Origin: a phage
Sequence record: PZ347775.1
Length of the DNA: 64,000 nt
Reading direction: 5' to 3' (one strand)
Positions 42,131 to 43,152 of this stretch are shown piece by piece (positions within the stretch are counted from its first letter, which is position 1; each line of letters opens with the position of its first letter). The notes under the pieces are model-generated. The model was not told the DNA's origin, ran no database searches, and was given only the letters and a program-made list of their open reading frames with translations. The position numbers were made by a program, and so were the translations under genes.

Positions 42131-42206
42131 TGGTCGAGGCAGTAGGGATCGAACCTACGACCTAGGACTTAGAAGGTCCTTGCTCTTCCTTCTGAGCTAT
42201 GCCCCG
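42131..42206 (-). tRNA. tRNA-Arg (anticodon UCU)
   Basis: Hand-folded cloverleaf on minus strand: acceptor CGGGGCA/TGCCTCG, anticodon loop CTTCTAA, T-loop GGTTCGATCC, encoded CCA. Confidence 0.8.
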
Positions 42207-42210
42207 TAAT

Positions 42211-42286
42211 TGGGGTGACCGATGGGAGTCGAACCCATGACTACGAGAATCACAATCTCGAGTTCTACCAACTGAACTACGGCCAC
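42211..42286 (-). tRNA. tRNA-His (anticodon GUG), no encoded G-1
   Basis: Acceptor GTGGCCG/CGGTCAC, anticodon loop TTGTGAT, discriminator C, CCA; resembles E. coli tRNA-His. Confidence 0.7.
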
Positions 42287-42400
42287 ATTAATACCTACTC
42301 CAACAATCAAGATGTCTTCACACGAAATTAAGAGAAGAGTGATCAGTTCAACCCCGATAATCGCGTCAAGTAGATATTAATGTGACAGTTGTCACAAATT

Positions 42401-42475
42401 TGGCGGACGTGATAGGATTCGAACCTATAACCAATCGCTTAACAGGCGATCGCTCTGCCATTGAGCTACACATCC
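42401..42475 (-). tRNA. tRNA-Asn (anticodon GUU)
   Basis: Acceptor GGATGTG/CACGTCC, anticodon loop CTGTTAA, T-loop GGTTCGAATCC, CCA. Confidence 0.75.
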
Positions 42476-42479
42476 AAAT

Positions 42480-42566
42480 TGGTGGGGAGTGATGGAGTCG
42501 AACCACCCGAGTCGCAATGACAATGGATTTACAGTCCACACCGCTACCTCTACGGGATAACTCCCC
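42480..42566 (-). tRNA. tRNA-Tyr (anticodon GUA), class II with long variable arm
   Basis: Acceptor GGGGAGT/ACTCCCC, anticodon loop CTGTAAA, long variable arm TGTCATTGCGACTCG, CCA. Confidence 0.75.
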
Positions 42567-42579
42567 TTAATTCTTAATT

Positions 42580-42654
42580 TGGTGGCCCTGGGTGGAATTG
42601 AACCACCATCTGGCGATTATGAGTCGCTTGCTTGAACCTTCCAGCTACAGGGCC
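42580..42654 (-). tRNA. tRNA with anticodon CAU (Met, or Ile if C34 is modified as reported for T4 tRNA-Ile)
   Basis: Acceptor GGCCCTG/CAGGGCC, anticodon loop CTCATAA, T-loop GGTTCAATTCC, CCA. Confidence 0.7.
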
Positions 42655-42655
42655 T

Positions 42656-42732
42656 TGGTGCTGATTGACGGAATCGAACCGCCGACCTTCTCATTACAAG
42701 TGAGTTGCTCTACCTACTGAGCTAAATCAGCA
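42656..42732 (-). tRNA. tRNA-Thr (anticodon UGU)
   Basis: Acceptor TGCTGAT/ATCAGCA, anticodon loop CTTGTAA, T-loop GGTTCGATTCC, CCA. Confidence 0.8.
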
Positions 42733-42736
42733 AAAC

Positions 42737-42826
42737 TGGCGGAGGCGATAGGATTTGAACCTATGAGTCGCCGGAGCGACTGCCGGTTTTCAAGACCGGT
42801 GCATTAAACCACTCTGCCACGCCTCC
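42737..42826 (-). tRNA. tRNA-Ser (anticodon UGA), class II
   Basis: Acceptor GGAGGCG/CGCCTCC, anticodon stem CCGGT/ACCGG with loop CTTGAAA, long variable arm, CCA. Confidence 0.8.
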
Positions 42827-42828
42827 AG

Positions 42829-42902
42829 TCTCCATACAAGGATTTGAACCTTGGACCTCCTGATCCCAAATCAGGCGCTCTACCAAACTGAGCTACACGG
42901 AG
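42829..42902 (-). tRNA. tRNA-Pro (anticodon UGG), CCA not encoded
   Basis: Acceptor CTCCGTG/TATGGAG, anticodon loop TTTGGGA, T-loop GGTTCAAATCC; 3' end is A-CU not CCA. Confidence 0.75.
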
Positions 42903-42912
42903 TAAATTAAAT

Positions 42913-42986
42913 TGGAGCGGATAATGAGAATCGAACTCACATCATCAGATTGGAAGTCTGAGGTAATGCCATTATACGATATCCGC
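42913..42986 (-). tRNA. tRNA-Gly (anticodon UCC)
   Basis: Acceptor GCGGATA/TATCCGC, anticodon loop CTTCCAA, T-loop GAGTTCGATTCTC, CCA. Confidence 0.8.
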
Positions 42987-42991
42987 AAATT

Positions 42992-43078
42992 TGGTGCGAG
43001 AAGTGGGACTCGAACCCACAAGGAAATCATTCCGCAGCATTTTAAGTGCTGTGCCTTTACCAATTTGACCATTCTCGC
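42992..43078 (-). tRNA. tRNA-Leu (anticodon UAA), class II
   Basis: Acceptor GCGAGAA/TTCTCGC, anticodon stem CAGCA/TGCTG with loop CTTAAAA, long variable arm, CCA. Confidence 0.8.
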
Positions 43079-43079
43079 G

Positions 43080-43152
43080 CTGGGAATAAAGGACTCGAAC
43101 CTTTGCATCCTGGAATCAAAATCCAGTGCCTTACCAACTTGGCTAATTCCCA
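43080..43152 (-). tRNA. tRNA-Gln (anticodon UUG), CCA not encoded
   Basis: Acceptor TGGGAAT/ATTCCCA, anticodon loop TTTTGAT, T-loop GGTTCGAGTCC; first gene of the cluster. Confidence 0.8.

Follow-up and report, generated by a model that had tools for sequence, protein, structure and literature searches.

The window analysed here is a 64-kb stretch of phage DNA (64,000 nucleotides of sequence record PZ347775.1), in which ARAGORN found 11 tRNA genes, all on the minus strand and contiguous between positions 42131 and 43152. Listed in the order of transcription, with their scores against Rfam family RF00005, they are tRNA-Gln(UUG), the first in the array (43079-43152, 67.4 bits), tRNA-Leu(UAA) (42992-43078, 59.3 bits), tRNA-Gly(UCC) (42913-42986, 63.3 bits), tRNA-Pro(UGG) (42828-42902, 66.8 bits), tRNA-Ser(UGA) (42737-42826, 62.6 bits), tRNA-Thr(UGU) (42656-42731, 72.9 bits), a tRNA with the anticodon CAU (42580-42654, 59.9 bits), tRNA-Tyr(GUA) (42480-42566, 30.2 bits), tRNA-Asn(GUU) (42401-42475, 74.1 bits), tRNA-His(GUG) (42211-42286, 65.1 bits) and tRNA-Arg(UCU) (42131-42206, 66.1 bits). 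Rfam passed all 11 independently, ten of them at 59-74 bits; tRNA-Tyr, a class II tRNA with a long variable arm, lies just above the gathering score of 29 bits owing to a mismatch in its D stem. The same set with the same coordinates had been proposed in an earlier note, and its Tyr, Asn and His calls are upheld by both programs. The ORF list contains no ORF between the tRNAs of the window. The only gap in the row, 114 bp between tRNA-Asn and tRNA-His, holds a conserved structured RNA element of 95 nt on the minus strand (42287-42381).

The CAU tRNA is labelled Met on the basis of its anticodon. It is identical to E. coli ileX at 58/76 positions and to metT at 51/77, and with ileX it agrees fully in acceptor pairs 1-5 and over the 15 nt of the anticodon arm, GCGACTCATAATCGC. 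Its acceptor stem, with C4-G69 and C5-G68, and its anticodon arm are ileX-like and differ from those of elongator tRNA-Met; these positions are the TilS determinants. Judged from its sequence, this gene most likely encodes a tRNA-Ile2, which would carry lysidine and read AUA, and represents the RB3/T2L-type allele.

Downstream of tRNA-Arg, the minus strand carries an ORF of 116 amino acids from the ORF list (ORF116, 41764-42114), located between tRNA-Arg and rnaD. Its product matches phrog_3355, a group with no assigned function (E 6e-54), has no Pfam family, and is annotated as a hypothetical protein in phage ECO07P3. It is followed on the same strand by two stable RNA genes, one resembling rnaD, or 'species 2', of T4 (41649-41764; 103 identical positions, 93% by blastn) and one resembling rnaC, or 'species 1' (41503-41641; 136/139 identical to T4 rnaC). 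The RNA gene array ends in a terminator-like hairpin on the minus strand (41429-41452), a pattern match from a consensus scan, with a 10-bp stem containing 7 GC pairs followed by the T-rich run TTTTAG. A promoter scan returned six sites against 6.9 expected from shuffled sequence, and no internal promoter is proposed on this basis; a sigma-70 promoter picked by eye in the gap was rejected, having the wrong hexamer spacing and a -35-like TTGACG that is not kept in Jiaodavirus. By analogy with T4, the eleven tRNAs, the 95-nt RNA and rnaD/rnaC, all arranged head to tail, would presumably be co-transcribed as polycistronic precursors and then matured by host RNase P, 3' exonucleases and the CCA-adding enzyme.

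The span from the trna.2, trna.3 and trna.4 ORFs to the rnaD/rnaC-e.8 position, together with the common gene order, identifies the locus as a Tequatrovirus tRNA gene region. In the T4 reference record (NC_000866) this region is annotated as Gln-Leu-Gly-Pro-Ser-Thr-Ile, then segB, then Arg-rnaD-rnaC, so that the earlier note listed the eight tRNAs of T4 correctly, and T4 does lack Tyr, Asn and His. Both genomes use the slot between trna.2 and e.8 and share the order Gln-Leu-Gly-Pro-Ser-Thr-CAU...Arg-rnaD-rnaC, and six tRNAs are 89-100% identical to those of T4: Gln at 66/74 positions and the other five at 96-100% (Leu 87/87, Gly 73/74, Pro 75/75, Ser 87/90, Thr 73/76). The description of the backbone as nearly identical to T4 proved too strong, however, since the flanks are only about 94% identical by blastn. 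T4 homology covers 44168-42635 at 94.7% and 41764-41420 at 93%, with none in between; it stops at 42635, after covering some 20 nt of the CAU tRNA, and picks up again at rnaD. In T4, segB takes the place of the window's Tyr, Asn, 95-nt RNA and His, no 116-aa ORF follows Arg, and the CAU and Arg alleles are different ones (47/75 and 48/76 identical, or 63%), so the cluster is not simply the T4 eight plus three. No match to T4 segB was found by blastn within 40001-45000.

The closest records to the window are ECO07P2 and ECO07P3 (97.6% identity over 96% of 25 kb). BLAST in a phage collection gave the layout counts: the Gln-to-Thr block is present in 488 phage records, the complete Tyr-Asn-gap-His block in 189, and a full-length T4-type segB in 126; a search of IMG/VR with the trna.2 protein gave 7 loci, too few for a survey. 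The eleven-tRNA layout is already known, being annotated in about 190 related phages. GenBank Tequatroviruses such as ECO07P3, wV7, AR1, slur02 and G50 have the same gene order at 96-99% identity with all eleven tRNAs annotated; their tRNA content is that of the window, and the 95-nt element is unannotated in all of them. The Tyr and Asn genes of T2L and RB3 were published in 2008 in a paper on T2L, RB1 and RB3 that does not mention tRNA-His (Brok-Volchanskaya, PMC2330249).

Related layouts form a series. The T2L, RB1 and RB3 regions and that of RB10 (KM606999) resemble the window in lacking segB and in carrying Met(CAU), Tyr, Asn and the RB3-type Arg, which in RB10 are identical to the window genes at 75/75, 87/87, 75/75 and 74/76 positions, as is its Gln at 74/74. 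RB10 differs in having 10 tRNAs, Arg coming directly after Asn, and is without the 95-nt RNA, His and ORF116. The T6 tRNA-Tyr is identical to that of the window at 85/87 positions, and both differences keep a stem pair (G-C vs G-U); the T6 region itself reads Gln-Leu-Gly-Thr-Met-Tyr, carries right behind Tyr a gene annotated as a homing endonuclease, which is the segB of PMC13096335, is without Pro, Ser, Asn and His, and has the T4-type CAU allele. Phage NWU11B has 11 tRNAs and, between His and Arg, a gene of the SegB family (51% identical, E 9e-69).

These comparisons bear on the direction of change. The preferred SegB site has been assigned to the tRNA-Asn gene, and T4 x T2L crosses turn the Met-Tyr-Asn-Arg form into the T4 form (PMC2330249). 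The window has no segB, and its tRNA-Asn is 75/75 identical to that of RB10, a member of the species Tequatrovirus RB3; this gene is accordingly predicted, from sequence identity, to be a preferred target of SegB cleavage. The eight-tRNA set of T4 is most likely a reduced, derived state associated with SegB homing, in which a segB cassette, together with the CAU and Arg alleles linked to it, would have replaced the 3' part of CAU, Tyr, Asn, the RNA, His, Arg and ORF116. This polarity is based on database record counts, which are biased by sampling, on breakpoints and on the published crosses. The "extra" tRNAs of the earlier note are thus truly absent from T4, but the word most likely reverses what happened, given the segB slot, the crosses (PMC2330249) and the record counts. 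A recent gain of three tRNAs by a T4-like genome, the polarity which that word implies, appears very improbable: the CAU and Arg alleles flanking Tyr-Asn differ from T4 too, segB sits in T4 at exactly the Tyr-Asn-gap-His position, homing experiments convert toward the T4 form (PMC2330249), and layouts with Tyr and Asn are more numerous than segB layouts. What speaks for such a gain concerns the unit of gap RNA and His, which is cassette-like, is absent in RB3-type phages, where Arg follows Asn after 4 nt, and is common to Karam- and Jiaodaviruses at 86-92% identity; His at least may have come or gone as a unit with the gap RNA.

Taken as a whole, the array very probably represents an endonuclease-free, full-length Tequatrovirus tRNA region with two non-exclusive roles, from which the T4 set is derived. 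This explanation builds on what was observed directly: the genes present, the breakpoints, the identities of the alleles, how the layouts are distributed, and the demand for codons and amino acids. The cluster as first reported changes nothing, as this is the common endonuclease-free tRNA region of T-even phages, already annotated and partly characterised. It does show T4 as an atypical member of its group, whose eight tRNAs reflect a homing-endonuclease cassette, and the tRNAs Tyr and Asn that T4 is missing are now known to be relevant against Septu- and PARIS-type defences. The first role would be supply for a genome of 35% G+C, in which the eight classic tRNAs would read A-ending codons rare in the host. 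The enrichment of these codons over the host is 8.9x for AGA, 4.9x for AUA, 3.6x for ACA, 3.6x for UCA, 3.3x for GGA and 2.8x for UUA. The second would be to insure the phage against nucleases of host defence systems, which remove certain tRNAs: Septu and retron-Eco7 target Tyr, PARIS AriB targets Asn and Thr, and nucleases of the colicin E5 type target Tyr, His and Asn.

It had been proposed that the extra tRNAs compensate codon usage, and this suits two of the three. Relative to a host sample, the demand for Tyr is 1.74x (rank 1) and that for Asn 1.64x (rank 3), while His is under-used at 0.67x (rank 19 of 20). The view that the three extra tRNAs solely serve an AT-rich proteome with an increased need for Tyr, Asn and His draws on these two ranks and on the enrichment of TAT (2.5x) and AAT (3.4x) over the host, but it is unlikely to suffice. 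It leaves out His, and Lys, in demand at 1.72x, has no tRNA in the array. Each of Tyr, Asn and His is served in the host by one isoacceptor that reads both codons, and therefore no rare-codon gap exists for them. Moreover, the near-identical tRNA-Tyr of T6 has an experimental anti-defence role (PMC13096335).

The other proposal of the earlier note, that phage tRNAs replace host tRNAs depleted by nucleases, was right in spirit and has already been published, for T6 against Septu and for T5 against retron-Eco7 and PARIS. The tRNA-Tyr of T6 is seen on Northern blots, rescues infection and counters Septu, from which T4 without this gene cannot escape; it neutralises Septu when amplified, is relatively unstable and is still cut by Septu (PMC13096335, Chihara 2026), and its benefit is therefore one of dosage, not resistance. 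The tRNA-Tyr of T5 resists retron-Eco7 (PMC11555353, as cited in PMC13096335), and the T5 Tyr, Lys, Thr and Asn tRNAs act against retron-Eco7 and PARIS (PMC11555353, PMC12409363). The AriB cut falls between positions 40 and 41, following U36AAUC, and T5 Lys, Thr and Asn tRNAs rescue infection (PMC12409363). In the window, besides the near-identity of tRNA-Tyr to its proven T6 counterpart, this tRNA shares an identical run of 33 nt (variable arm and T arm) with the tRNA-Tyr of T5, while positions 36-41 of tRNA-Asn read UAAGCG vs UAAUCC in the host; G39 is found in the T5 tRNA-Asn as well, and the changes U39G and C41G adjoin the AriB cut site. The Tyr and Asn tRNAs of the window thus bear features of the defence-evading tRNAs of T5, and from these features we infer that they may resist AriB or retron-Eco7.

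Whether defence alone accounts for Tyr, Asn and His, as replacements of or decoys for host tRNAs destroyed by Septu, retron-Eco7, PARIS and colicin-E5-like nucleases, is doubtful. The three share GUN anticodons, those of the queuosine family, and colicin E5 cuts exactly the Tyr, His, Asn and Asp tRNAs (PMC1635277), but U33-G34-U35, the colicin E5 recognition sequence, is kept in all three, so that resistance is not evident. For Tyr, the amplified T6 relative neutralises Septu (PMC13096335) and the variable arm is the same as in the T5 tRNA-Tyr cited as resistant to retron-Eco7, yet the T6 tRNA is still cleaved by Septu; for Asn, the two substitutions at the AriB cut site recall the rescuing tRNA-Asn of T5 (PMC12409363), yet demand data favour Tyr and Asn independently. 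Finally, no tRNA-His-specific nuclease is known to restrict T-even phages. A combination of supply and insurance remains the preferred explanation for the region.

Within this combination tRNA-His fits neither reading well, because His is under-used and the gene has no encoded G-1. E. coli HisRS relies on G-1, according to the established identity rules for tRNA-His. The gene has the GUG anticodon, a canonical cloverleaf and C73, is identical to E. coli hisR at 61/77 positions, and shows compensatory change, the T stem of tRNA-His in phage LilPanda differing from the window by three double compensatory changes; at position -1 (window 42287, minus strand) it has T, not the G that bacterial-type genes, including the host hisR, encode opposite C73. 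T at -1 is also found in Tequatro-, Karam- and Jiaodaviruses and in T5, while T4 and RB3-type phages are without tRNA-His. The window tRNA-His would mature without G-1, which together with the low demand for His suggests a role beyond plain His supply. A literature search for phage tRNA-His lacking G-1 found nothing relevant, with thin coverage of the older (pre-2000) T5 and T4 RNA papers.

The -1 position of tRNA-His is also part of the last pair of helix P1 of the 95-nt element. RNAalifold predicts that this element folds into a three-way junction, made of the closing helix P1 of 14 bp, a helix P2 with a distal hairpin, the junction sequence GAA and a hairpin P3 with the loop UCWUGAU. Pairing reaches 97.8% vs 26-47% in slid controls, and seven pairs are changed on both sides vs 0-2 in those controls; the hairpins P2 and P3 and their loop sequences are conserved, and P3 covaries. 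The distal hairpin of P2 occurs in two interchangeable versions, and the complementarity of both their loops to that of P3 suggests that the loops may be in contact. The element is found in 356 phage records and is annotated in none. A covariance model, R1, gave matches of 85-114 bits at 13 phage loci, and the element is conserved within the tRNA clusters of at least four genera of Straboviridae and a few Vequintavirinae, with the tRNA-sense orientation in all five contexts. A sequence pattern, ACGCG-N(28-48)-CGTRTGAAGNNNYCWTGAT, recovered known viral loci among viral contigs, while in bacterial genomes it matched only 12 unrelated MAG contigs, 0/12 of which were accepted by the covariance model. 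There is thus no evidence for the element outside phages.

Several known classes were rejected for this element. Rfam 15 gave nothing credible overlapping 42287-42381 at E<=10, a permissive search of 41380-42420 returning only tRNAs and noise. A degenerate tRNA is called by neither ARAGORN nor Rfam, and a hammerhead or other ribozyme is opposed by junction strands of 1, 3 and 1 nt and the lack of an Rfam match. The rnaC and rnaD genes of T4 are likewise small non-tRNA RNAs inside a tRNA array, but the element is not their paralogue, because the covariance model does not match them and gave no further hit in the window or the T4 region. That the conservation lies at the DNA level, as it would if the element were a site of homing or recombination or consisted of a small mobile element's inverted terminal repeats, is highly unlikely. 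The element does lie where endonucleases have driven exchange repeatedly, its two ends are inverted repeats of each other, and it acts like a piece of a mobile cassette present in unrelated phage families; however, 37/225 pair cells are G-U, pairing only on the tRNA-sense strand, its orientation to the tRNAs is constant throughout, and the internal hairpins with their loops are conserved alongside the ends, P3 with covariation.

The 95-nt element is the sole new item in the region and previously undescribed, a literature search being negative, although the older pre-2000 T4 and T5 papers were thinly covered, so that a description there is possible. We consider it, with a slight balance in favour, a putative small structured RNA that is the T4-like counterpart of the stable RNA III of T5. 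Phage T5 (NC_005859), although from an unrelated family, has directly before its T-1 tRNA-His a stable RNA of about 100 nt (RNAIII), whose 5' and 3' ends pair in a closing helix (12 bp in the predicted fold), the same placement and architecture as in the window. The tRNA-His genes, of 76 and 78 nt, have 50 identical positions in a pairwise alignment. No homology between the two RNAs was detected, the best R1 score across the tRNA region of T5 being 12.6 bits with filters off. An RNase P cut at the 5' end of tRNA-His would free the 95-nt element as a stable species whose two ends are held in a helix, and it may act in trans. If the element is a real stable RNA, a widespread unannotated gene would be added to several hundred genomes of therapeutic-candidate phages. 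It would also provide, next to T5 RNA III, a second independent case in which a structured RNA is coupled to a tRNA-His without G-1, and the decades-old question of phage 'stable RNAs of unknown function' would become more tractable through comparative analysis.

At its other end, the first base of the element is overlapped by a perfect palindrome, TGTGACAACTGTCACA (42381-42396), located 4 nt past the CCA of tRNA-Asn. The pattern TGTGA-N6-TCACA has one match in the window vs 0.08 expected, and the left arm of the palindrome is specific to Tequatrovirus.

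Scanning of the 64-kb window with ARAGORN revealed exactly eleven tRNA genes, which form one contiguous minus-strand row at 42131-43152 in the transcription order Gln(UUG), Leu(UAA), Gly(UCC), Pro(UGG), Ser(UGA), Thr(UGU), CAU, Tyr(GUA), Asn(GUU), His(GUG) and Arg(UCU). The Rfam tRNA model recovered the identical eleven genes, ten of them at 59-74 bits (gathering score 29). The eleven identities assigned by hand folding in the earlier note are therefore all correct, the Tyr, Asn and His calls being upheld by ARAGORN, and the cluster is real. The tRNA-Tyr gene scored only 30.2 bits and has a D-stem mismatch in the ARAGORN drawing. 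It is identical to the annotated tRNA-Tyr gene of RB10 (KM606999, species Tequatrovirus RB3) at 87 of 87 positions and to that of T6 at 85 of 87, with both differences from T6 located in the anticodon and T stems and pairing kept (G-C versus G-U). The T6 tRNA-Tyr has been detected by Northern blot and rescues infection (PMC13096335). This tRNA-Tyr is common to unrelated phage families, as seen from a match of about 96% over 91 nt in the rV5-like phages V5 and naswa.

The T4 reference record lists Gln, Leu, Gly, Pro, Ser, Thr, Ile, the homing-endonuclease gene segB (71253-71918), Arg, rnaD and rnaC, so that the number of eight T4 tRNAs given in the earlier note is correct. In blastn comparison, window positions 44168-42635 match T4 at 94.7%, the alignment ending about 20 nt into the CAU tRNA gene, and homology restarts at 41764-41420, covering rnaD and rnaC (93%). 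Between these breakpoints T4 carries the 3' part of Ile, segB and Arg, whereas the window contains the 3' part of the CAU gene, Tyr, Asn, 114 bp, His, Arg and an ORF of 116 aa. The CAU gene (42580-42654) is identical to that of T4 at 47 of 75 positions and to that of RB10 at 75 of 75; the corresponding values for the tRNA-Arg(UCU) gene (42131-42206) are 48 and 74 of 76. Both are alleles distinct from those of T4 (63% identity) and match RB10 instead; therefore the cluster is not T4's eight plus three, as had been supposed, but combines six genes common to both phages with two replaced alleles and three genes missing from T4. The part of that claim concerning the absence of Tyr, Asn and His from T4 stands. 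The supposed T4-near-identical backbone does not, since the nearest records are Escherichia phages ECO07P2/P3, with 97.6% identity over 96% of a 25-kb query. The CAU/Arg allele pair tracks the presence or absence of segB, and T6, which has segB, carries the T4-type CAU allele. The tRNA-Gln gene (43079-43152) differs from those of T4 and T6 at 8 of 74 positions and is identical to that of RB10, which places a second boundary between alleles at the array's upstream end.

The identity of the CAU tRNA was examined using the E. coli K-12 tRNA genes as a reference. It is identical to ileX, the tRNA-Ile2 gene, at 58 of 76 positions and to metT at 51 of 77, and shares with ileX acceptor pairs 1-5 (GGCCC) and the entire anticodon arm GCGACTCATAATCGC. 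With these similarities it is most likely a tRNA-Ile2 dependent on lysidine, a predicted modification, and would read AUA, a codon 4.9-fold enriched in the window ORFs.

With the 1.9-kb region as a query, matches were found in 1145 phage records. Comparison with related phages, proposed in the earlier note, showed that all eleven tRNAs are annotated in the same order in dozens of records, for example ECO07P3, wV7, slur02 and G50. Within the same phage collection, 488 records cover 80% or more of the shared Gln-to-Thr block, 189 cover as much of the Tyr-Asn-gap-His block, and 126 contain full-length T4-type segB. Several layouts differ. RB10 has ten tRNAs, with Arg directly after Asn, and in T6 the series Gln-Leu-Gly-Thr-Met-Tyr precedes a gene annotated as a homing endonuclease, which is the segB of PMC13096335. 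Phage vB_EcoM_11B_SA_NWU combines all eleven tRNAs with a SegB-family gene between His and Arg (locus 1938-2558); its product shares 51% identity with SegB (E 9e-69), the last 44 aa being identical, and the CCA end of tRNA-His is gone at the insertion. In EPIMAM01 an additional ORF of 171 aa separates trna.2 from tRNA-Gln (locus 854-1369). A truncated SegB-like gene, which aligns with about 40% of the length of T4 segB, occurs in AR1 and RB51. The position of the AR1 copy, some 600 bp upstream of the Tyr-Asn-His block, makes it probable that it shares a slot with the EPIMAM01 ORF.

Sequencing of the T2L, RB1 and RB3 regions has revealed Met, Tyr, Asn and a different Arg without segB (Brok-Volchanskaya et al. 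2008, PMC2330249). The preferred SegB cut was mapped inside the tRNA-Asn gene, and in T4 x T2L crosses segB was inherited at nearly 100%, with exclusion of about 1250 bp carrying Met, Tyr, Asn and Arg; tRNA-His is absent from that account (PMC2330249). The window is the endonuclease-free, full form of the region. Judged by breakpoints, counts and the published crosses rather than by a rooted tree, T4's eight are most plausibly the derived, homing-associated form, and loss in T4 is favoured over the gain of three tRNAs on a T4 backbone envisaged previously. The eleven-tRNA cluster is already known, the same genes being annotated in many GenBank records, and a 2008 paper already described how T4 differs in Tyr and Asn and traced this to segB (PMC2330249). 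What deserves follow-up is a 95-nt structured RNA in the Asn-His gap and the adjoining tRNA-His, which has no G-1.

Codon usage was compared between 82 non-overlapping ORFs of the window (17,738 codons; window G+C 35.0%) and 42 annotated E. coli genes (14,748 codons). The A-ending codons of the classic eight are enriched in the window: AGA 8.9-fold, AUA 4.9-fold, ACA and UCA 3.6-fold, GGA 3.3-fold, UUA 2.8-fold, CAA 1.6-fold and CCA 1.4-fold. Tyr is the most over-used residue (1.74-fold) and Asn the third (1.64-fold), while His is under-used (0.67-fold, rank 19 of 20); Lys is used 1.72-fold, yet has no phage tRNA here. The suggestion that the extra tRNAs compensate codon usage thus explains Tyr and Asn, but not His.

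The other proposed role, replacement of nuclease-cleaved host tRNAs, has since gained ground through the anti-defence role shown for the near-identical T6 tRNA-Tyr (PMC13096335). The window and T5 tRNA-Tyr share a 33-nt run comprising the whole variable arm and the T arm, and the distinctive variable loop of the T5 molecule reportedly confers its resistance to retron-Eco7 (PMC13096335, citing PMC11555353). Cleavage by the PARIS nuclease AriB has been placed between positions 40 and 41, after U36AAUC, and T5 tRNA-Asn contributes to rescue (PMC12409363); at positions 36-41 tRNA-Asn reads UAAUCC in the host, UAAGCG in the window and UAAGTT in T5, the UAAU motif being broken in both phage genes. 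Colicin E5 cuts four queuosine-family tRNAs, three of which are Tyr, Asn and His (PMC1635277, PMC1669751), a link that van den Berg et al. have already considered for the tRNAs of coliphages (PMC10264068). U33-G34-U35 is retained in all three window tRNAs, and therefore E5 resistance is not evident. The anti-defence properties of the window tRNAs are inferred from these sequence features and point in a direction already published.

The window tRNA-His (42211-42286) has C73 and a T at -1 (position 42287). HisRS depends on G-1, a hallmark of tRNA-His, and E. coli hisR, the tRNA-His gene, encodes a G at -1 facing C73. T at -1 with C73 occurs in tRNA-His of every T4-like genus examined, including Karamvirus and Jiaodavirus, and also in T5. 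Three double compensatory changes distinguish the T stems of the LilPanda and window genes, which indicates selection as a tRNA. Since it lacks G-1, so that host HisRS may charge it less well, and meets a low His demand (0.67-fold), tRNA-His is the sole cluster member outside both standard explanations.

Apart from the 114 bp between Asn and His, the array has no long spacer. The final 95 nt of this gap (42287-42381, minus strand) show tRNA-level conservation across Tequatrovirus, Karamvirus and Jiaodavirus, lying between tRNA-Gln and tRNA-His in the latter two. In Gelderlandvirus STP4-a (locus 1205-1330) the element is kept and tRNA-His is reduced to its first four bases (GTGG); therefore it is not strictly dependent on the adjacent tRNA-His. 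In the Vequintavirinae phage A7_1 it lies between tRNA-Gly and tRNA-Gln, and its closing helix differs in sequence, still with 9 bp paired. The element was found in 356 phage records, in none of which is it annotated as RNA, and an Rfam search at E<=10 returned no match. A covariance model scored 85-114 bits on 13 of 13 phage loci, rejected chance pattern matches in bacterial genomes, and detected no second copy in the window or T4. The Karamvirus and Jiaodavirus clusters contain 12-15 tRNA genes in the stretches fetched, with other spacers of 100-250 nt (e.g. Asn-Asp, Asp-Met), which could hold more unannotated RNAs.

According to RNAalifold the two ends of the element pair as a 14-bp closing helix enclosing internal hairpins. 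The structure, comprising this helix (P1, 14 bp), a second helix with a distal hairpin (P2, 5 bp) and a third hairpin (P3, 4 bp), was tested on ten distinct variants, those of STP4-a and A7_1 included, against controls with partners slid by 1-3 columns. Paired cells amounted to 97.8% versus 26-47% in the slid controls, pairs changed on both sides to seven versus 0-2, and the covariation score to 0.296 versus at most 0.139; in 500 shuffles a score of 0.296 was never attained. Five pairs of P1 and two of the four in P3 covary; P2 hardly varies, apart from one C-A mismatch in the Jiaodavirus lineage. The covariation support is good but not overwhelming, because the sample represents only about five independent lineages. 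G-U pairs, which can form only on the tRNA-sense strand, occupy 37 of 225 cells, and in each of the five contexts the element points the same way relative to the tRNAs; both observations favour an RNA over a DNA repeat. The P2 distal hairpin exists in two unrelated versions, type A with the loop UUGAACUGAUCA, and type B, GGCAG-AAGUCAUGAAC-CUGCU, in STP4-a, KPV15-like Klebsiella phages and relatives. The conserved P3 loop UCWUGAU is complementary to both (AUCA:UGAU for type A, UCAUGA:UCAUGA for type B), which suggests, as a hypothesis, a P2-P3 loop-loop contact.

The T at -1 of tRNA-His is also the last base of the closing helix. In a working model, RNase P would cut at the canonical site after U-1, freeing the element as a small RNA whose ends, locked in a helix, would make it stable; the same cut would yield tRNA-His without the extra 5' nucleotide. 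A similar arrangement is found in the unrelated phage T5 (NC_005859), where the annotated tRNA-His begins with T at -1 and has RNAIII (106 nt) and RNAI (107 nt) immediately before it (record 30206-30500), both labelled 'stable RNA with unknown functions'. The ends of RNAIII form a closing helix of 12 bp, as computed, with additional hairpins (z = -2.85). The covariance model applied to the T5 region with filters off revealed no homology (best 12.6 bits), and the likeness is therefore one of placement and architecture, not demonstrably of descent.

Downstream of tRNA-Arg, before rnaD, lies the 116-aa ORF (41764-42114; phrog_3355, function unknown), for which no Pfam family was found; all eleven-tRNA relatives examined carry it, and T4 and RB10 lack it. 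It is followed by an rnaD-like RNA (41649-41764; 103 positions identical to T4 rnaD), an rnaC-like RNA (41503-41641; 136 of 139 identical to T4 rnaC) and a terminator-like hairpin (41429-41452). In an IMG/VR relative, ARAGORN reported a 94-nt 'tRNA-Stop (tta)' 3' of tRNA-Arg (locus coordinates 5580-5673), which may be a tRNA-like RNA of the rnaD/rnaC type rather than a suppressor tRNA. Promoter-like sites showed no excess over shuffled sequence. A perfect palindrome, TGTGACAACTGTCACA (TGTGA-N6-TCACA), is located at 42381-42396, 4 nt after the tRNA-Asn CCA, with one match found versus 0.08 expected by chance, and its left arm is Tequatrovirus-specific. This pattern corresponds to the CRP core consensus, which makes the palindrome a candidate CRP-like site.
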